From the NCBI GenBank assembly GCA_964534665.1, contig CAZHRT010000001.1, positions 76,037 through 140,036 of the forward strand: DNA of 64,000 bases, read 5' to 3'. Origin of the DNA: an uncultured Methanosarcinales archaeon. GTDB taxonomy: Archaea > Nanobdellota > Nanobdellia > Woesearchaeales > JAHJBD01. The notes under the pieces are model-generated. The model was given only the letters and a program-made list of their open reading frames with translations, made no database searches and was not told the DNA's origin. Shown piece by piece: positions 2,444 through 12,340 of this stretch; positions within the stretch are counted from its first letter, which is position 1; each line of letters opens with the position of its first letter. A program made the position numbers and the translations under genes.

Positions 2444-2569
2444 TGCGGGAGACGAGGTTCGAACTCGCGCATCCACTAAGGAACTAGGCCTTTGATGGCG
2501 AATAAACGCAACGCGTTTACTTTGCTTATATCCTCAACCTAGCGCATTTGACCACTCTGCCACTCCCGC
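2444..2569 (-). tRNA. tRNA-Leu (anticodon GAG) with ~40-nt intron in anticodon loop
   Basis: Revcomp GCGGGAG TG GCA GAGTGGTCAAA TGC G CTAGG TTGAGG[intron ATATAAGC...AAAGG]CCTAG, long variable arm, GCGAG TTCGAAC CTCGT, CTCCCGC A. Perfect 7-bp acceptor, class II variable arm. Confidence 0.75.
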
Positions 2570-2593: not shown

Positions 2594-3379
2594 TTACTTG
2601 AGGTCTTTAACAAGTGTAATAAACTCATCACACTTCTCATCAATAGCTTTTGAAGCTTCTTGAACTATTTTCTTAGGTTCAAGTTGACCCCATGACTCAA
2701 CTGTAAAAATATAATCATTATTCTTGTTAACCTTAACTTTGCCTTCTGATGCTTCTTCACATGCACCGCAAAGATGACATTTTAAGAGATTATCTTTATT
2801 AACAATTACTTTATTATCTTTAAGATCAAAAACATCTACTGGACACGATTCAACAACTTTAGCAGCGTCCTTCACATCTCCAATTTCAATTTCTGCTTTT
2901 TGTTTGTAAAAAGCTAAACCAGGACTCCATTTTGAATGTACTTTTCCTTTACCCAAAACTGCAGTAGCCTCAAGTTCAATTTGTTGACCTTTAAGCAATT
3001 TCGCAATAGGCATATTAGGATAAACGGGTTTAACTCCAGAATCTTTTGAATTTATTTCGGATGCTAAAACAACAGCTGGACCTTTAGCTTTCAATGTCAT
3101 ATTTAATTGACATCTAGCACAACCTTTACCTTCACATTTACATTCATCAGGTAAATTATAAGATTTCAGGTCTGTTGTTAAAGGCAACAAACCTAGTCTA
3201 TGTGCGATCATTTCATCGTATAATATTGAACTATTTTTTCGGATTTCAACTTCTTCAACAGCCATAACAGGAACATCTCCAAGGATTGCCCTTCTCAATG
3301 AGTTAACAAAAGCTGGTGTTGATTCTCTTACCAAAAACGAGATCTTATTCTCAGATTTATCTAGAGATCTTATTTCCAT
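2594..3379 (-). CDS. rpoD: DNA-directed RNA polymerase subunit D (Rpb3 homolog) with 4Fe-4S cysteine cluster
   Basis: [46 protein letters not shown]. CxC...CxxC clusters. Operon position between S11 and L18e. Confidence 0.9.
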   Translation of the reverse strand: MEIRSLDKSENKISFLVRESTPAFVNSLRRAILGDVPVMAVEEVEIRKNSSILYDEMIAHRLGLLPLTTDLKSYNLPDECKCEGKGCARCQLNMTLKAKGPAVVLASEINSKDSGVKPVYPNMPIAKLLKGQQIELEATAVLGKGKVHSKWSPGLAFYKQKAEIEIGDVKDAAKVVESCPVDVFDLKDNKVIVNKDNLLKCHLCGACEEASEGKVKVNKNNDYIFTVESWGQLEPKKIVQEASKAIDEKCDEFITLVKDLK

Positions 3380-3843
3380 TATACTCTCCTCCCTCTTTTT
3401 CCACCTTTTTTTCTACAACCATCATGAGGCATAGGTGTAACATCCTCAATTATTCCAATTCTCAAACCCATTCTTGAAAGTGCTCGAATTGCTGCTTGAG
3501 CTCCTGGACCAGGACTTGCAGGACCATTATGTCCACCTGGTGCTTTAATCTTTACATGAATTCCTGTGATTCCATGTTCTTTAGAAGCTTCGCCTGCTTT
3601 TTTTGCTGCAATCATTGCAGCTGTAGGAGAACTTTCCATTCTATCTTGCTTAACAACCATTCCACCTGATGCTAAAGCAATAGTTTCAGTTCCAGTAATA
3701 TCAGTAATATGAATTATTGTATTATTATAACTAGAATAAATATGTGCAACACCCCAAATCAAAGGTTGATTTCTTCTAACCGGCCTACTAATAGGTTTAC
3801 TAACGGGCCTACTAACAGGTTTACTAACAGGTTTATTTTCCAT
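3379..3843 (-). CDS. rps11: 30S ribosomal protein S11 (uS11) with N-terminal KPVS/RPVS tandem peptide repeat
   Basis: [37 protein letters not shown]... classic uS11. N-terminus [19 protein letters not shown] is encoded by a 12-nt tandem DNA repeat. Confidence 0.9.
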
Positions 3844-4615
3844 CTTCTTTTACCTTATCTTTTTTCTTATCATCTTTAGGTGCTTCGTCTTTTTTATCTT
3901 CTTTAGCAACCTTTTCTTCTTTAACAGGAGCATCTTCATTTTTATCAGTAGACTCTTTCTTAGGTTTTGTTTCTTTTTTATCTTTTTTAGGTGCTTTTTC
4001 TTTTTTATCTTCCTTAGCAACCTTTTCTTCTTTAACAGGAGCATCTTCGTTTTTATCAGTAGACTCTTTCTTAGGTTTTGTTTCTTTCTTAACTTCTACT
4101 TCAGGTTGAGCCCTTTCAGGATGATCTAAACTTGATAATTTTGAAGCTGGCCTAAATTTAATTGCTGCTTCTTCTTCAACTGTTACAAGATAAGAAGGGA
4201 TAGTCATTGGTTGTTCACCAATATAAATATGTTTATGTGTAATAAATTGTCTTGCTTGTTTCATTGATCTTGCTAGGTTTTTCTTAAAAACTAATGTTTG
4301 TAATCTTCTACCTAAAATTTCTTTAGTAGTTATTGACAAAATATCTTCGATTTTTCCGCCTTGTTCAAGCAAACCAAGAGAATTTACTTTAATTAGCAAT
4401 TGTTGCCTTTCAATCTCAGACTGTTTTGTTTGTTCTCTAATAACTCTCTTTATCTGAGCAAATAAACTTTTTAAGAAAGACTCCATCTTCCAAATTTCTT
4501 TTTTATTCTTAAGACCATAATCTCTAACAAAGGTCTTTTCAGTATCAATTCTTTCCTTTTGCCAAGGATGTGATGGTGTTGTATACTTCTTTCTTTTTTT
4601 TCTTGGATCGCCCAT
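3833..4615 (-). CDS. rps4: 30S ribosomal protein S4 (uS4) with duplicated K/E-rich C-terminal extension
   Basis: N-terminal [23 protein letters not shown] and S4 RNA-binding domain. C-terminal about 90 aa is low-complexity lysine/glutamate-rich with an exact 37-aa internal duplication. Confidence 0.9.
3862..4085. repeat. Tandem direct repeat, period 111 bp x2, inside rps4 3' end
   Basis: cttttcttctttaacaggagcatcttc... recurs at 3911 and 4022 (offset 111). Encodes [30 protein letters not shown] twice. Confidence 0.8.
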
Positions 4616-4625
4616 ATTAATTCAC

Positions 4626-5084
4626 TTACTTTTTCTTTTTAACTCCTAATGAAAGTTTACCTTTATTTTTTCTAAAATTAGATTTTGTTCTCTGACCCCT
4701 AACAGGTAATTTTGACATATGTCTAACACCTTTATAGGTTCTAATTTTCTTTAATTGTTTAATATCGTTATCACGTACATAAGAAACATCAGCTGAACTT
4801 AAATGCATATCTTCTCCTGTCTCAGGATCATTCCTTCTATTTAGCATCCAAACCGGAGCCCCAAGTTTTTGAGGATCTTTAATAAATTCTTCAATTTTCT
4901 TAACTTCAGCATCTGACAAATCTCCAGATTTTTTACTAACATCAAGACCTAAAGTATTACAAATAAGATTTCCAAACATAAAACCAACACCTTTAACCTT
5001 TTTTAATCCAATACCAATTGGCCTATTTCCATCAAGGTCGGTGCCCATTATACGAACAATGTGTTTAAATTCTGTTTCAACCAT
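4626..5084 (-). CDS. rps13: 30S ribosomal protein S13 (uS13)
   Basis: MVETEFKHIVRIMGTDLDGNRPIGIGLKKVKGVG typical uS13 N-terminus. Confidence 0.9.
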   Translation of the reverse strand: MVETEFKHIVRIMGTDLDGNRPIGIGLKKVKGVGFMFGNLICNTLGLDVSKKSGDLSDAEVKKIEEFIKDPQKLGAPVWMLNRRNDPETGEDMHLSSADVSYVRDNDIKQLKKIRTYKGVRHMSKLPVRGQRTKSNFRKNKGKLSLGVKKKK

Positions 5085-5222
5085 TTTAATTATTAATCCT
5101 AGAATATGAACCCTAGGAACGCCGTTTTGACTCGGGCTAATAGAATTAAGAAACTGAAGTCTGTTTATAAAGGTTGTGGTAAACGATAGATTTATAAGTT
5201 ATTTTTCAACTCTTGAGATTAT

Positions 5223-5350
5223 GGTGGCGATAGTATAACTTGGCTAGTACCCAGGACTGTGGACCAAGCTTTCGGGCAGGATAGATATCCTGGAGTCCGG
5301 GAAGATAGAAAATTTATTCTATCTCGGCAATTCAAATCCCGGTCGCCACC
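5223..5350 (+). tRNA. tRNA-His (anticodon GTG) with two introns (anticodon loop and T-arm)
   Basis: G(-1) GTGGCGA TA GTAT..GTAC C CAGGA CTGTGG[intron]A TCCTG GAGT CCGGG[intron AAGATAG...GGCAA]TTCAAAT CCCGG TCGCCAC C. G-1:C73 pair and GUG anticodon are His hallmarks. TTTATAA box about 25 nt upstream. Confidence 0.7.
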
Positions 5351-6051
5351 CTTCTTTTCATTATGTACCTTTCTAATAATTCTTTTTTATGATTTATAGC
5401 TATATATCGAATAACAAACTCACGAAAAAAGGTAATATTCTTAGAAGATAAACTAAATTCTGTAACACACCCTCTGCTATTGAAAGTATTTCCAACAAAC
5501 ACATTTTGTTTTTCTCTGGTTATGGAACTAACACCACACTTCAAGAAATTCTTAATACTCTCTTCTAATTTAAATAATCTTCTCCTGCTATGTACCCTTA
5601 TACAACATTGAGGATATTTTGGCCTCTTAATCCTCACATCACCGTCTCCATCAATTACTCCTGCCAAATATGAACCAAATAATGCAGAGTTCTTCAAAAT
5701 CCAATCCGGTGGATGAACTTGCTTAAAATCTATTTTTAATTTGCAAAATAATTTTAATAAATTTTTGCATCCAAACTTATAATCATATCTCAAAAATCCT
5801 TTTTTATCAGTTAATTTAAACAAACAGCCTTTTAAACCAAAGATCTTTTGCGTAATATTTCTAAATTTATCCTGCATCGAAAGTGATTTTTTCCCAACTC
5901 CTAAAACAACAAAATATCTTTTTCTATTAATGGACTGCACATGTTGCACTTTGAAATAACCATCACTCTGAACAACACCTACCCAATAAGCAAAATCAGG
6001 GCTATTAACGCATCTTTCATAGATTTCTTGATTTAATATCTTTGAATTCAT
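5332..6051 (-). CDS. LAGLIDADG-family homing endonuclease-like protein (two motifs, single-chain type), free-standing
   Basis: Motif 1 FAYWVGVVQSDGYF and motif 2 YLAGVIDGDGDV both keep the catalytic Asp. 3' end overlaps tRNA-His by 19 nt on the opposite strand. Confidence 0.75.
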   Translation of the reverse strand: MNSKILNQEIYERCVNSPDFAYWVGVVQSDGYFKVQHVQSINRKRYFVVLGVGKKSLSMQDKFRNITQKIFGLKGCLFKLTDKKGFLRYDYKFGCKNLLKLFCKLKIDFKQVHPPDWILKNSALFGSYLAGVIDGDGDVRIKRPKYPQCCIRVHSRRRLFKLEESIKNFLKCGVSSITREKQNVFVGNTFNSRGCVTEFSLSSKNITFFREFVIRYIAINHKKELLERYIMKRRVATGI

Positions 6052-6169
6052 TTTGCATTACAATGATCATCCAGATTAGATCTAAATAAATGATTTTCGC
6101 CTCAGCAAAAATAATAATTAAGTAGTGTAATCAATATTTAATGGTAATGTAAAAAAATTAGAAAATGGT

Positions 6170-6718
6170 TCAAGCGTTTTGAAAGGCTCGGTCCCCATCC
6201 TCTTTTACCCCACCTTTTTTCTCTAAAACTTTACTAACAACATAAGGTATAGTAAAAGCAATAACATAAACCAAACTAACAATAATTGGATTATGACTAA
6301 CTTCATTAATTCTAATTGTTCTATTAAGATGATTAGCAAAATTAACCATAAAATATACATTAACTAAAGCAAGTGAAGGTATAAAAACTCCTGCAACAAT
6401 ATGTTCTTTTCTTTCTAATTCTTTTAAATCATCAATTATTACAATAAACAAAAAACCAAAAGTCAATGCAATTACCGAGATAATCCCATACAAGAAAATA
6501 GCATGAAAAACCAATAAAAATGGAACCAATACAACAGAAACAATCAAATTACCTATAATCGCCACAATCAAAACAAACCAATAAATAAACTCGTCCAATA
6601 ATTTAACCATATGATGTTTTTTTTCTTGTGCAGATTGAAATATATTATTTGCTTTAATTAAATCTTCTCTAGACCAACCTTTTGAGCCTAATTTTGAATA
6701 AATACCTTCATTCATCAT
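6170..6718 (-). CDS. Small integral membrane protein (about 4 TM helices), hypothetical
   Basis: Hydrophobic stretches WFVLIVAIIGNLIVSVVLVPFLLVF, IISVIALTFGFLFIVII, IVSLVYVIAFTIPYVV. Start overlaps upstream gene by 11 nt. Confidence 0.5.
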   Translation of the reverse strand: MMNEGIYSKLGSKGWSREDLIKANNIFQSAQEKKHHMVKLLDEFIYWFVLIVAIIGNLIVSVVLVPFLLVFHAIFLYGIISVIALTFGFLFIVIIDDLKELERKEHIVAGVFIPSLALVNVYFMVNFANHLNRTIRINEVSHNPIIVSLVYVIAFTIPYVVSKVLEKKGGVKEDGDRAFQNA

Positions 6719-7187
6719 TCATTCTTTTATCATCATTCATTAATTCTTTTATATATTTAAAAAAACTTTTTGTATCATCAAAATAAATATTCAACTTATC
6801 AATATCAACTTCAAAGCTATTTCCATCTAAATCAGCAATCAATGTTACATGCCGCCTATATTCTTCCCGTCTAGTATATTCTGCCCTGCTAACTCTACGC
6901 ATTAAAGCATAAAATTCAAGATTTTTATTAATAACTTCATCATCTGCAAAATGTTTAAGTAACAATTCACATCGTAAAGCAGGAACATTTGGAGATTCAT
7001 CAGTCATCTTTTTCTCTTTTGCATAATCTAAAAGTGCAAGAATCATAAAATCATAAGCACTTATTAGTCTCAAAACAACGCTTTTAACAACATCTACTGT
7101 CCTACTATATTTTAAACTAACAAATATCAAATGATCAATTCTCTTCATTTCACCTACTGCATCTTCAAGATTTTCATTCATCGTCAA
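6708..7187 (-). CDS. Hypothetical alpha-helical protein, paralog of 7174..7752
   Basis: 159 aa. N-terminal block RIDHLIFVSLKYSRTVDVVKSVVLRLISAYDFMILALLDY resembles ADHMLTMTYPFVKDPKILLAVLENVFLAMINSMGSIL of the neighbour. No recognisable named domain. Confidence 0.5.
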   Translation of the reverse strand: MTMNENLEDAVGEMKRIDHLIFVSLKYSRTVDVVKSVVLRLISAYDFMILALLDYAKEKKMTDESPNVPALRCELLLKHFADDEVINKNLEFYALMRRVSRAEYTRREEYRRHVTLIADLDGNSFEVDIDKLNIYFDDTKSFFKYIKELMNDDKRMNDE

Positions 7188-7752
7188 TTATCCTCGAATT
7201 TAATTCTACAAATGATTTAGCACTAGAGATATAACCTTTAATCGAATCTAATGTTATTGTTCTAAGATCATATTCATTTGTGCAAATTACAAAACTATCT
7301 TTTCGAGAAAACTCAATTGGGCTTTCCCTATGTTCCTTAATAACTTCCCTAAGTTCCTGTATCGTATTAAGATAATGTCTTTCTATATTAAACTTTGGTG
7401 CACATTTCTGTTTAAATAGATTAAATTTTGATACAAAAGTATCTTGAAAAGGTGGGATTTTCTTATAAGTCCTTTCAAAATGAAGTATTGAACCCATACT
7501 ATTAATCATAGCCAAGAAAACATTCTCAAGAACAGCCAAAAGAATTTTTGGATCCTTAACAAAAGGATAAGTCATTGTTAGCATATGATCTGCAATTTGA
7601 ATTTTCTTTCTGGCTACGTCTCTAAGACCATCATAACGTTCCATAAGATATAATAGGTTATCAAAGTTAATAAAGTTTATTCTTTTACATGTCAAAATTT
7701 CACTATCATTTAGTATAAAAACATAAATTAATGAAATTCTGAGCATGCTCAA
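7174..7752 (-). CDS. Hypothetical alpha-helical protein (possibly HEPN-like fold), paralog of 6708..7187
   Basis: 192 aa, overlapping the downstream paralog by 14 nt. No recognisable catalytic motifs. Confidence 0.5.
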   Translation of the reverse strand: MSMLRISLIYVFILNDSEILTCKRINFINFDNLLYLMERYDGLRDVARKKIQIADHMLTMTYPFVKDPKILLAVLENVFLAMINSMGSILHFERTYKKIPPFQDTFVSKFNLFKQKCAPKFNIERHYLNTIQELREVIKEHRESPIEFSRKDSFVICTNEYDLRTITLDSIKGYISSAKSFVELNSRIIDDE

Positions 7753-7819
7753 AAATCATCTTAAAATCAAGAAATCTCAAATAAGTCACTAATTTTTATA
7801 AGATGATTTTTTACAGACG

Positions 7820-8158
7820 TTATTCCTTCAAAGACATTATTGCAGCTGCAAGATCGCCATTATGTTCAGAAATTGCTTTTTCAGCAGTTTCTTTATCAAC
7901 ACCTGCTTGTTCCATTACAGTATTAATATCATCTTCATTAATATCTGGTTCAGAAGATATTGCTCTTTCTTCAATCTCACCAACAACTTGAAAAGTTTCT
8001 TGACCACCCATATTAACTTTAGAAACATTTGGATTTGTTATAACAATCTCTTTTTCAGGAGTTCTAATTATAACTTCAGTAGCGTCTATCTCTTGTTGTT
8101 GAATACCAAGCCTTTTCATAGCTTGCTTCATCATCCGAGGATTCATTCCAGGTATCAT
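7820..8158 (-). CDS. nac: Nascent polypeptide-associated complex alpha subunit (NAC domain plus C-terminal UBA)
   Basis: MIPGMNPRMMKQAMKRLGIQQQEIDATEVIIRTPEKEIVI...ETFQVVGE and C-terminal TAEKAISEHNGDLAAAIMSL (UBA-like). Confidence 0.85.
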   Translation of the reverse strand: MIPGMNPRMMKQAMKRLGIQQQEIDATEVIIRTPEKEIVITNPNVSKVNMGGQETFQVVGEIEERAISSEPDINEDDINTVMEQAGVDKETAEKAISEHNGDLAAAIMSLKE

Positions 8159-8328
8159 AATCCTAAAAACCCATTGCCAAAAGTATAAAGAACAACCATA
8201 ATAATAATCACAGCTATAGATAATATAATAACTTGTCCAGGAGATAACTCTATTTTACTCTTGTACTCATCAAAGTACCTCATCAATCCGCCCATGCCGC
8301 TTGGCATGTTAACTTTATCTTTTGCCAT
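8155..8328 (-). CDS. secG: Preprotein translocase subunit Sec61-beta (SecG); 57 aa, absent from ORF track
   Basis: Reverse translation MAKDKVNMPSGMGGLMRYFDEYKSKIELSPGQVIILSIAVIIIMVVLYTFGNGFLGL. GLxRYFDE motif plus single C-terminal TM. TGA stop overlaps the NAC ATG (ATGA). Confidence 0.75.
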   Translation of the reverse strand: MAKDKVNMPSGMGGLMRYFDEYKSKIELSPGQVIILSIAVIIIMVVLYTFGNGFLGL

Positions 8329-8813: not shown

Positions 8814-9875
8814 TTATTTACTAAAAACTAAAACTGCTAATTTCCCCTTACCAACACTAAGCTTTCTTTCCTCTTTTAATTTTAATTTATATTCAGAAGA
8901 AACTTTCTTTAACAAATCTAAGTTACTACCACAAACAACCATTACTCCACCATCTTTCAAGACAAACTCAACTTGATGTAAAAATTCATTATACAGTTTC
9001 TCAATCTGCTTAACATCAGACACCCTATTAACTTCTGGAACTTTTGTAACAATCCTATCAATAGATTTTTCTTTAAATTTAGTATCTAACCATTCTATAT
9101 CAACTTTTGAAAAAGTTATATTTTTATGAACACTTGCAATCTTAGCATTCTTCTTAGAATTGTTTAAATCTAACCATTCAGATGCATAACCATAAACTTC
9201 TAATTTTCCATCTTTGACATCATCTTTGAAATCAAATGAAAATAATTTATTAAAAGCTAATTTATCTTTATTATAATAATTAACACTTAAACCTAAACTA
9301 TAAAGTACTGCTTCAATCGGAATAAGGCCAGACCTACAAAAAGGGTCAACTAAAACATCACCAACTTTAAAACCAGATAATCTAACTAAGCCATAAGCAA
9401 TTGTTCCCCTTATAGAATCTTTATGTCCAAACAACTTATAACTTCTTTTTTGTAAGTCAATCCCAGAAAAATCAATTCCAATATAACATTGATCTTTAAC
9501 AAGATAAGCGAATATAATTGTATCTGGATTATTCAAATCAACCTTTCCCTCGATAAATTCACCAACTTTAGATTCTACTTCATCAAGATCGTTATCAATT
9601 TGAACAGAACTAACCCGAAAAGTACCCGTCAAAGAAAAATCAATATTTTTAACCTGTTTAAAATCATCAAGTGAACTAACTTTAAAATTATCTAATAATA
9701 ACAATACCTTATCTACGCTTTGACATTTATAACTCAACAAACAAAGTTCTTTCTCACTTTTAACATCAAGAATACAAAAACCTTCACCTAAAGAAGCACT
9801 AACACCAATCAATTCTTTAATTTCAAGAGCAGCAACATCTTCAAGGCCTTTAGAAACAATAACTAAACATTTCAT
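8814..9875 (-). CDS. THUMP-domain RNA methyltransferase (Trm11/Trm-G10-like, tRNA guanine-N2 methyltransferase family)
   Basis: N-terminal THUMP-like region, then class I MTase with [15 protein letters not shown] (compare DPMCGSGTIxIEA of UPF0020/PF01170). Confidence 0.7.
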
Positions 9876-12340
9876 TCTGTTACAATCTTAGCAGAAGCAA
9901 CTAACTCATCCCCTTCTGAAAGCCTCATCAACCTAACGCCCTGAGTTGCTCTCCCAATCATTGAAATCCCATTAACAGGAATCCTAATACATATACCTTC
10001 CCTGCTTATCATCATAATGTCATCTTCTTCAGAAACAGATCGAATAGCTCTAACCGGCCCATTCCTATCAGAACAAATAATATTCTTAACACCTACTCCA
10101 CCACGATTAGTTTCACGATATTCAGAAATCTTAGTTCGTTTACCAAAACCATTTTTAGTTACAGTTAACAAAGTTTTATTCTCTGATGCAAACACCATTT
10201 CAATAACTTTATCATCGCCTTTAAGAGTAATTCCCCTCACTCCACCAGCATTCCTACCCATTGCCCTAACCTTACTTTCATTAAATCTTATAGCCATTCC
10301 GTTTTTTGTGGCAATTATAACATCTTTTTTACCATCAGTTAATACAACATTAATTAATTCATCACCTTCGTGTAAAGTACAGGCAATTATCCCAGTGTTT
10401 CTTGGTCTACTAAATTGAGATAGATTAGTTTTCTTAACTACGCCAGTTCTAGTTGCCATAATTAAAAAATGCTCATCATCAAATTCTTTAACAGGAACAT
10501 ATGTACTAATTGTTTCATCATTTTCAAGATTCAATAAATTAACAATTGGTTTACCTTTAGCAATCCTACTGCCTTCAGGAATATTATAAACCTTTAACCA
10601 ATAAACCCTCCCCTTATTTGTAAAAAATAATAAATAAGAATGTGTATTAGCAACAAAAATATCTTCAACAAAATCCTCATCTTTTGTTCCTGCAGCAATA
10701 ACCCCTTTCCCACCACGTTTTTGTTGTTTATATGTTTCAACAGGAACTCTTTTGATATAACCTGAATGACTAATAGTGATTACCATTTCTTCAGGCTTAA
10801 TTAAATCTTCCATATCAATATCCTCATCGCCGTCTTCTGCAATACCTGTCCTTCTTTCATCACCATATTTCTCACGTATTTCAATTAATTCATTTTTTAT
10901 GATATCAAGAATCTTTTGTTCATCAGCTAATATGGTTGTTAATCTTTCAATAAGCTTAACTAATTCATCCAACTCATTTCTAATCTTATCTTGTTCTAAA
11001 GAAGTAATTTTTTGCAATTTCATATCCAAAATAGCATTAGCTTGTTTTTCAGATAATGAAAAATTAGCAATCAATGCTTGCCTAGCTTCTGCAACTGCTT
11101 TACTTTCTTTTAAGATTTTAATTGCTTGATCAATATTATCTAAAGCAATAACAATGCCTTTTAAGATATGCTCTTTATCTTTTGCAGCATTAAGATCAAA
11201 CTCTATCCTTTTCCTAACAACTTCTCTTCTATGATCAATAAAGTGTTGAAGCATCTGTTTTAAATTTAAAACACGTGGCTCATTATCAACCAAAGCAAGC
11301 ATGATAACACCAAAAGTGGTTTGCATTCTACTATGCTTATACAATTGATTCAACAAAACATCTGGATCAGCATTTTGCTTAAGTTCAATCACAACTCGCA
11401 TACCTTCTCTATCAGATTCATCTCTCAAATCAGAAATAGTATCAACTTTCTTATCTCGAACAAGGTTTGCTATTTCCTTTACCATCTCTGATTTATTAAC
11501 CATATAAGGAATTTCTGTAATAATAATTTTCTGCTTATTTTTAACCTCTTCAATATTGGTCTTAGCTCTTAAACGTAATTTACCCCTACCAGAAGTATAT
11601 GCACCAACAATCCCATTTCTACCACAAATTGTTGCACCAGTTGGAAAATCTGGTCCTGTGATACACTCCATTAACTCTCCAACAGTAATCTCAGGATTAT
11701 CCATCTGTTTAATAATACCTTCAACAATTTCATTCATGTTATGTGGAGGTATATTTGTTGCCATACCAACAGCAATACCAGAAGAACCATTTAATAACAA
11801 ATTAGGAAATTTAGCAGGAAGTACAGAAGGTTCTTTAAGACTACTATCAAAATTATCAACCATCTTAACAGTCTTTTTTTCAATGTCATGCAACATTTCC
11901 TCAGACAATTTGTTAAGTTTAGCTTCTGTATACCTCATTGCAGCAGCACGATCACCATCAATACTACCAAAATTACCTTGACCTTGAATTAAAGGATAAC
12001 GAAGAGACCAATTCTGAGCCATCCTAACCATTGAATCATAAACAGCAGAATCTCCATGTGGATGATACTTTCCCAAAACTTCCCCTACAATTCTAGCAGA
12101 CTTTCTAGAAGGCTTATTATGGAACATGCCCATATCATGCATAGCAAACAAAATTCTTCTGTGTACAGGCTTTAAACCGTCTCTAACATCAGGCAAAGCC
12201 CTTCCAACAATAACAGACATAGCATAATCTACATAACTTTGCCTCATTTCATCTTCGATTACACGAGGCACAATATTCTGCTTTTCAGGGGTATTTTCCT
12301 GATTAGATTCTTTGTTATTTTCAACCTGATTTTCATCCAT
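9872..12340 (-). CDS. gyrA: DNA gyrase subunit A
   Basis: [31 protein letters not shown], active-site Tyr region [11 protein letters not shown]-terminal beta-pinwheel repeats. 822 aa. Confidence 0.9.

Follow-up and report, generated by a model that had tools for sequence, protein, structure and literature searches.

The 64,000-nucleotide stretch analysed here (the window: positions 76,037 to 140,036 of contig CAZHRT010000001.1, assembly GCA_964534665.1, filed under an uncultured Methanosarcinales archaeon and placed by GTDB in the Woesearchaeales) contains a module of three co-directional, overlapping genes on the minus strand, which we term A, B and C. Profile comparisons indicate that A and B are, very probably, real paralogues, and their affiliation with the HEPN superfamily, for which the predicted structures argue, is likely. 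The reading that we prefer, and to which we give even chances, is that A and B constitute a lineage-specific, chromosomally encoded HEPN-like dimer that is directed at RNA, is linked to the membrane through C and serves a housekeeping role. In the DPANN archaea, which have tiny genomes with a large share of conserved genes lacking an assigned function, three 'hypothetical proteins' thus become a defined family with a HEPN-like fold, a candidate active site, a history of duplication and loss, and a fixed genomic address.

Gene layout and paralogy of A and B

Open reading frames (ORFs) are present at the positions given in the initial annotation, which had been made from the sequence alone, and the three overlapping genes that it described, with overlaps of 14 nt between A and B and 11 nt between B and C, are reproduced with the TTG starts that it assumed. 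The features of the module, with starts as revised below, are the following.

7666..7675, minus strand: TATA-like element CTTTATTAAC, read from the sequence, its centre about 26 nt upstream of the ATG of A
7174..7644, minus strand: gene A, 156 aa, predicted HEPN fold, less constrained paralogue (ORF, start from the homologue set, AlphaFold2, Foldseek)
6708..7181, minus strand: gene B, 157 aa, predicted HEPN fold, strongly constrained paralogue (ORF, 138 homologues, AlphaFold2, Foldseek)
6170..6718, minus strand: gene C, 182 aa, membrane protein with about four putative transmembrane segments (ORF, 15 homologues, hydropathy)
6151..6165, minus strand: T4 and T7 runs, read from the sequence, directly 3' of the stop codon of C

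Gene A had been taken to run to position 7752, which its homologues do not support. Because relatives begin MEK[YF]xELR and the 99%-identical homologue P0001 is 156 aa long, the start is placed at the ATG at 7644 (reading MERYDGLRD); the TTG at 7752, 108 nt beyond this position, is too far upstream. The start of B is most likely the ATG at 7181, which gives an 8-nt overlap (ATGAATGA) with the stop codon of A, and C starts at 6718 or 6715, its 100%-identical homologue P0241 being 181 aa long. The TATA-like CTTTATTAAC may serve as the archaeal promoter of a leaderless transcript of A-B-C, and the T-runs after C are a candidate archaeal oligo-T terminator of the same unit, so that the two elements, as read from the DNA, would fit separate, leaderless transcription of A-B-C. 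A scan for sigma-70 promoters and hairpin terminators, which employs bacterial models that are not applicable to archaea, returned fewer matches than shuffled sequence. The spacer between A and the upstream gene nac (7645..7819) measures 175 nt here versus 32 nt in the closest relative (L006), matches no Rfam family, and holds the spurious N-terminal extension of the originally proposed ORF together with several T-runs.

The paralogy of A and B is visible by profiles only, the pairwise BLASTP comparison of the two proteins being non-significant (E = 2.8). Compared with hhalign as alignments of 56 sequences each, the two families are collinear over 155 columns (probability 92.5%, E = 4.7e-7), and at E ≤ 1e-3 the hidden Markov model (HMM) of B matches 139 of the 267 members of A, and that of A 155 of the 261 members of B, with no unrelated ORF matched in the database of 3116 sequences used for this reciprocal test. 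The joint MAFFT alignment of A and B is gap-poor and includes invariant positions (H20 of A with H17 of B, and E111 with E107) as well as near-invariant ones (R114 with R110, and L54). Furthermore, a neighbour-joining tree of 55 A and 86 B sequences resolves A and B as reciprocally monophyletic, a clean split which indicates that the duplication is older than the sampled diversity. The ancient tandem duplication suggested in the initial annotation is in agreement with the profile comparisons and the tree; the similarity of the N-terminal block on which it had been founded is genuine, but is not limited to the N-terminus and spans the full length of both proteins. Correlations between the distance matrices are moderate for A and B (r = 0.41) and for B and NAC (r = 0.57), and these were consequently not used as proof of vertical descent; the value for B and C is 0.82.

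Predicted fold and candidate active site

The AlphaFold2 models of A and B have mean predicted local distance difference test (pLDDT) scores of 90.9 and 90.4, respectively, and a predicted template modelling (pTM) score of 0.85 each, and share an identical order of elements: four helices, the third of which is short, three short strands and a long C-terminal helix (H1-H2-(short H3)-H4-beta3-H5, or α4-β3-α). The proteins had been described as all-helical, a description that is contradicted by the three-stranded beta element found in both models between helix 4 and the last helix. When the models were compared independently with the PDB using Foldseek, HEPN proteins ranked first for each (probability 0.96-1.00). 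For A, the top match is AF_0298 (2hsb; E = 4e-3, TM-scores of 0.66 (TMq) and 0.81 (TMt), root-mean-square deviation 3.1), with further matches to ST0689 (1wol), HepT (5yep, 6m6w, 7bxo) and 4nqf; for B, HepT (the same three entries; TMq 0.50-0.55, probability 0.97-1.00) and 2hsb are on top, followed by 3mfn and 1wwp. The HEPN domain is an up-down bundle of four helices, made up of two alpha-hairpins, in which an insert separates core helices 2 and 3 (PMC3710099), and this arrangement is found in both models. In the mapping that we favour, H1, H2, H4 and H5 would correspond to core helices 1 to 4, with the short H3 and the beta element as inserts, so that the models describe a HEPN-type bundle of four helices, extended by one helix between core helices 2 and 3 and by a three-stranded beta insert immediately following the catalytic motif position.

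The structural matches therefore bear out one half of the earlier 'HEPN/PhoU-like' guess and not the other, since PhoU, DUF47 and KaiA-like folds are absent from the top 50 Foldseek PDB matches of either model and neither PhoU nor DUF47 was matched in Pfam. A prefoldin-like or GINS-like pair of paralogues was also considered and was rejected, as neither is found among the structural matches, and a Foldseek search of the viral structure library BFVD with the B model returned nothing meaningful.

In agreement with the earlier description of an uncharacterised family, no Pfam, NCBIfam or PADLOC family matches A, B or C. Searches of Pfam and NCBIfam with the proteins, 56 members of each of the two families and the consensus sequences gave only weak, scattered matches, among them MCM_N in 11 B members (best E = 0.005), which we treat as noise, and PADLOC returned nothing for the three proteins or the consensus sequences. 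Profile searches of the PDB contain no HEPN entry up to E = 10, and the matches that were obtained by phmmer or profile (glycogen phosphorylase, the TAF1 bromodomain, portal proteins) are at chance level. Literature searches on the family (HEPN or RNase P with Woesearchaeota; HEPN with NAC) found nothing relevant.

Residue conservation, calculated from 252 unique members of B and 261 of A, is concentrated in two blocks of each protein.

7092..7151, minus strand: B block E-x2-R-x-D-H...V-S-L-K-Y-x-R-T-x-D, residues 11-30, end of helix 1 and loop to helix 2; the second invariant block
6843..6872, minus strand: B motif R-R-E-E-Y-R-R-H-V-T, residues 104-113, just after helix 4; family form [KR]-R-E-E-Y-R-R-H-V-T
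7546..7593, minus strand: A block A-D-H-M-L-T-M-T-Y-P-x-V-K-D-P-K, residues 18-33, equivalent of the first conserved block of B
7297..7332, minus strand: A block H-x2-S-P-V-E-F-x-R-K-D, residues 105-116, equivalent of the B motif (hhalign columns, merged alignment)

In B, residues E11, H17, Y25 and V112 are invariant (252/252), R14, K24, R27, T28 and D30 are each present in at least 250 members, and the same five together with R38, E107 (251) and R109 (250) in at least 249. R110 is found in 244 members, the other eight having Lys, and H111 in 230, with R109, R110 and H111 all at 100% in the 83 loci derived from GTDB. The conserved residues of A are A18-D19-H20, T25-Y26-P27, D31, K33, H105, S108, E111-F112 and R114, with D19-H20, Y26, D31, K33, H105, S108, E111-F112 and R114 retained at 88-99%. 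B is the more constrained and probably the functional subunit, and A the more relaxed paralogue.

The catalytic Rx4-6H motif of HEPN proteins, in which a polar residue follows the Arg, lies where core helix 3 ends or the next loop starts (PMC3710099). In the B protein of the window, R105-EEYRR-H111 is a formal Rx5H that immediately follows the helix mapped to core helix 3, and 192 of the 252 B members (76%) combine H111 with an Arg at position 104 or 105, which makes a formal Rx5-6H. The earlier statement that no R-x4-6-H is evident is accordingly correct for A, which has P109 and K115 at the positions aligned to R105 and H111, but not for B. The ends of core helices 1 and 3 share a pole of the bundle, and mean-field direct coupling analysis of the B alignment, albeit noisy with an effective number of sequences of 175, places 11 of its top 45 couplings between residues 14-38 and 99-131, where about 3.4 would be expected. 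These include S22-R110, V29-R104, S34-Y108 and K33-A100; D128 is likewise coupled to R110 and to H111 within the top 45. On both grounds, the two invariant blocks of B probably come together in a single site at the canonical active-site pole of HEPN domains.

Comparison with described HEPN systems suggests that the A/B family is most aptly placed in the HEPN fold class as a non-canonical variant, set apart by its organisation as a paralogous pair, the beta insert, the signature of a helix-1 His and E-[FY]-x-R, and its core-gene context. The closest in structure are the HEPN-T proteins AF_0298 (2hsb) and ST0689 (1wol) of PF05168, which are also small, single-domain archaeal proteins. AF0298-type HEPN domains are without the motif His and keep the basic residue with an alternative His N-terminal to it (PMC3710099), an arrangement that resembles H105...R114 of A. 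However, A and B have no PF05168 match and no adjacent minimal nucleotidyltransferase, include the extra three-stranded insert, and occur as a pair of paralogues in a fixed chromosomal context, whereas HEPN-T proteins are encoded by single genes in scattered loci resembling toxin-antitoxin (TA) systems. HepT of the HepT-MntA system (5yep, 6m6w, 7bxo), prominent among the matches to B, likewise has a basic/His motif after the third core helix, but this is RX4HXY rather than [KR]-R-E-E-Y-R-R-H-V-T, and B has no MntA partner, no PADLOC match and is not mobile.

A beta insert directly after the motif position recalls Csx1, in which the position of Rx4-6H is followed at once by a beta-hairpin (PMC3710099), although A and B have neither the CARF domain nor the CRISPR context of Csx1/Csm6, and no similarity to these proteins in sequence was detected. 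Examples of HEPN domains in housekeeping or membrane roles are known from eukaryotes, namely Las1 (which acts on internal transcribed spacer 2 of pre-rRNA), the KEN domains of Ire1 and RNase L, and the membrane-anchored C6orf70 (PMC3710099). With these, A and B would share a HEPN fold outside conflict systems, given their core-gene context and membrane protein neighbour, but the likeness is one of functional analogy only, and the eukaryotic proteins have retained the canonical motif.

Also relevant to a pair of diverged subunits is Cas13, in which two non-identical HEPN domains within one polypeptide, each with an Arg and a His, form one composite RNase site. The sharing of one site by two diverged HEPN units is what is proposed for an A-B heterodimer; the difference is that in Cas13 both are part of a single chain and each contributes Arg and His, while A lacks the motif.

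The fold class also admits a reading in which the A/B dimer is a sensor that binds a small molecule or nucleotide, the original 'nucleotide-binding' sense of HEPN, exemplified by the substrate-binding subunits of nucleotidyltransferases, and signals to C. The best structural matches (2hsb, 1wol, 1wwp) are indeed nucleotidyltransferase-associated HEPN-T proteins, and the invariant basic cluster would suit phosphate binding. We nevertheless consider a sensor decidedly improbable: no nucleotidyltransferase partner is encoded next to A/B in the window, nor is any Pfam nucleotidyltransferase family found beside them in the gene-called loci, where the neighbours among the 85 loci compared below are nac upstream and C or minD downstream.

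Synteny, distribution and proposed function

Relatives of B are present in at least 585 species-level genomes, as determined by a scan of one genome per GTDB species in which 80 loci were listed. The three genes are real and conserved. The 80 listed B loci are labelled Woesearchaeota or Nanoarchaeota, save a few whose bin labels are generic or look wrong, and all named relatives of A, B and C come from Woesearchaeota or Nanoarchaeota metagenome bins, which identifies the source of the window as a DPANN archaeon of this group. Many GTDB bins with the locus are titled 'uncultured Methanosarcinales archaeon' (L007, L009, L015, L016, L030, L033, L076 and others) and one 'Aminicenantes bacterium'; these titles are probably placeholders or wrong taxonomic labels. 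A combined A+B profile retrieved 1364 cluster representatives (50% identity level, E ≤ 1e-3), of which the best 150 are all single-domain proteins of 134-201 aa; the names of ten of the representatives are uninformative. No A/B relatives were found among IMG/VR viral contigs or, by tblastn, among the plasmids of PLSDB.

Gene order is largely conserved across 85 related loci, running RNase P RNA - sec61β - nac - (A) - B - (archaeal minD) - C, with the following architectures.

NAC-B-C: 26 of 85 loci
NAC-A-B: 23 of 85 loci
NAC-A-B-C: 20 of 85 loci
x-A-B: 8 of 85 loci
NAC-B: 3 of 85 loci
x-A-B-C: 3 of 85 loci
x-B: 2 of 85 loci

The statement that the module is not obviously related to its flanking genes is at variance with this conservation, since nac (encoding the nascent polypeptide-associated complex alpha protein) is directly upstream of A/B in 72 loci and 77 loci carry an upstream RNase P RNA gene in the same orientation, at a median distance of 1041 nt from the start of B (confirmed by Rfam in 11 of 14 loci checked). 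In the same number of loci, 77, rnpB, sec61beta and nac follow one another on one strand. The junctions of A with B are mostly overlapping, with typical values of -20, -8 or +1 nt, and the same holds for most junctions of B with C and of B with minD. The A/B genes are chromosomal, apparently vertically inherited and not mobile, and are widespread in Woesearchaeota-type Nanoarchaeota.

No related locus lacks B, and A is absent from 31 of the 85 (L009-L034 and others, at about 4650..5470), where nac abuts B. The sequences from these B-only loci nest within the B clade, as one large derived clade and scattered cases, and A was therefore lost or moved secondarily, after the duplication.

This pattern bears directly on the proposal of a 'defence unit', or more specifically of a TA or anti-virus module in which a HEPN toxin (B) would be combined with a pseudo-HEPN antitoxin (A) and a membrane effector (C). 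Conflict systems account for most prokaryotic HEPN proteins (PMC3710099), and the tightly overlapping three-gene layout would suit such a module. We find it scarcely credible, because A, B and C have no PADLOC match and no minimal nucleotidyltransferase neighbour, because hundreds of species have them at one fixed place, between nac and the S13-S4-S11-rpoD operon, and because the supposed antitoxin is dispensable in the 31 loci in which the supposed toxin is retained. Only one A and one B are encoded in the 64-kb window, and no viral or plasmid copies are found.

The C protein begins with a soluble region of about 42 aa that includes a K-G-W-x3-E-I-x-K-A segment and is followed by hydrophobic stretches at residues 43-95 (with room for two transmembrane segments), 107-125 and 143-163, a hydropathy profile that is consistent with four transmembrane segments, as the initial annotation had suggested. 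The invariant positions in the alignment are W47, N57, S61, P66-F-L-L, F87-G88, P114, Y151 and P158, with the polar N57 and S61 falling inside the first hydrophobic stretch. Among 83 loci scored with the family HMM, C adjoins B in 48 and is part of the cluster in about 68, and that A-B-C is a membrane-associated regulatory unit, as had been proposed, is possible in view of this linkage. An archaeal-type MinD ATPase is encoded directly after B in 19 loci, with C further downstream in 17 of these, usually right after MinD; about 12 loci have neither C nor MinD nearby. The MinD neighbour matches TIGR01969 with 257.7 bits against a cut-off of 201.75, and a Get3-like ATPase, considered as an alternative, was rejected on this score and the weakness of the Get3 match. 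Loci with MinD between B and C include L007, L014, L019, L020, L028, L029, L032, L037, L044, L054, L057, L059, L064, L069 and L076 (at about 5450..6700 in most).

Taking fold, conservation and context together, we propose that A and B would act as a dimer, heteromeric (A-B) in the presence of both genes and homomeric (B-B) after the loss of A, as suggested by analogy with HEPN proteins and by the translational coupling of the two genes. Such a dimer would present a basic/His cleft that binds RNA or cleaves it in a metal-independent manner, an activity to which the fold, the position of the site and the residue types point, and which would be tied to the membrane by the putatively co-transcribed C and, in some lineages, by the MinD encoded between B and C. 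The gene context and wide species distribution suggest that its role would be in housekeeping (related to RNA or to translation and biogenesis) and not in defence. That RNA is the substrate of A/B is possible, but falls somewhat short of even chances. If this reading is true, A and B would provide an entry point to the RNA processing or the membrane organisation of an uncultured lineage and, with prokaryotic HEPN proteins known almost solely from conflict systems, a vertically inherited, non-mobile pair would amount to domestication for core biology.

Several observations weigh against this reading. The Foldseek E-values are modest (4e-3 to 0.1) at identities of 10-16%, four-helix bundles can converge, and there is no sequence-level tie to a described HEPN family, the nearest approach being HEPN_AbiU2, matched by 3 of the 56 A members at a best E of 0.0025. 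The canonical Arg of Rx4-6H varies, R105 being found in 175 of the 252 B members, and the best-conserved signature, the helix-1 His with E-[FY]-x-R shared by A and B, is not a described HEPN signature. Helix 2 of HEPN domains carries a second conserved acidic residue, often within Ex3[KR] (PMC3710099); Ex3[KR] is absent from this helix in both families, and B has instead the invariant E11-x2-R14 of helix 1, plus D30 and R38. Overlapping genes are, moreover, common in compact DPANN genomes, which makes synteny weak evidence of function, and A may sit elsewhere in genomes scored as B-only.

An unlikely contender is that A and B are HEPN-like proteins without catalytic activity, which serve a membrane or positioning system as adaptors or regulators and bind C and/or the archaeal MinD; they might, for instance, partner MinD in cell-division or envelope positioning, with the charged residues forming a protein or nucleotide interface. 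Archaeal MinD is not known to have a MinE-like partner. The retention of C in the cluster and the 19 loci in which minD overlaps or abuts its neighbours between B and C would fit such a role; many HEPN domains are non-catalytic (PMC3710099) and archaeal MinD proteins position cellular machinery (PMC11588486; bioRxiv 10.1101/2020.04.03.021790). On the other hand, MinD is absent from the 64-kb window and from most loci, C and MinD are both missing from the vicinity in about 12 loci, and the dozen invariant residues (Arg, His, Tyr, Lys and Glu) of the active-site pole look more catalytic or phosphate-binding than like a protein interface.

The most intriguing point concerns the conserved neighbours of the proposed RNA-directed dimer, for which a functional link to RNase P RNA, NAC and Sec61β and frozen synteny are inseparable from the present data. 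In a bolder version, which we consider quite unlikely, B, accompanied by A in genomes that have it, would be the first factor of HEPN type, whether binding or cleaving RNA, known to be widely conserved as a chromosomal gene of an archaeal lineage, recruited to housekeeping in the manner of Las1 and Ire1, and the block from rnpB to C would then reflect a functional link. The protein may in that case be a lineage-specific cofactor of RNase P or of tRNA/rRNA maturation, or may take part in membrane-tethered RNA quality control at the translocon.

Neighbouring genes in the window

The window is AT-rich (about 31% GC), and A and B are each single-copy within it. The module is surrounded by archaeal informational genes on the minus strand, as follows.

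9872..12340, minus strand: gyrA
8814..9875, minus strand: 353-aa ORF, in the position held by a THUMP-domain methyltransferase gene in the syntenic locus L002
8403..8762, minus strand: RNase P RNA gene (Rfam RF00373, 107.8 bits), head of the conserved syntenic block, directly upstream of sec61beta
8155..8328, minus strand: sec61beta (Pfam Sec61_beta, 9.6e-12), within the conserved syntenic block
7820..8158, minus strand: nac (Pfam NAC, 2.7e-14), conserved upstream neighbour of A/B
5332..6051, minus strand: free-standing LAGLIDADG homing-endonuclease-like ORF, 239 aa (PF00961, E = 8e-5), between C and the S13 gene
2594..5084, minus strand: S13-S4-S11-rpoD operon

At the site of the LAGLIDADG ORF, the closest GTDB relative (L006) shows no more than a spacer of 217 nt and L002 has S17e and a tRNA, and because of these differences the ORF looks like a recent insertion. 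ARAGORN found no tRNA in the whole window; Rfam places one at 2444..2569 (minus strand, 45.9 bits), the 126-nt span of which implies an intron or insertion. Within the ribosomal protein operon, the C-terminal tail of S4 (3833..4615, minus strand) is long, rich in Lys and Glu and internally repetitive, a direct repeat of 30 residues occurring twice in it, and the N-terminus of S11 (3379..3843, minus strand) begins with a repeated KPVS/RPVS peptide.

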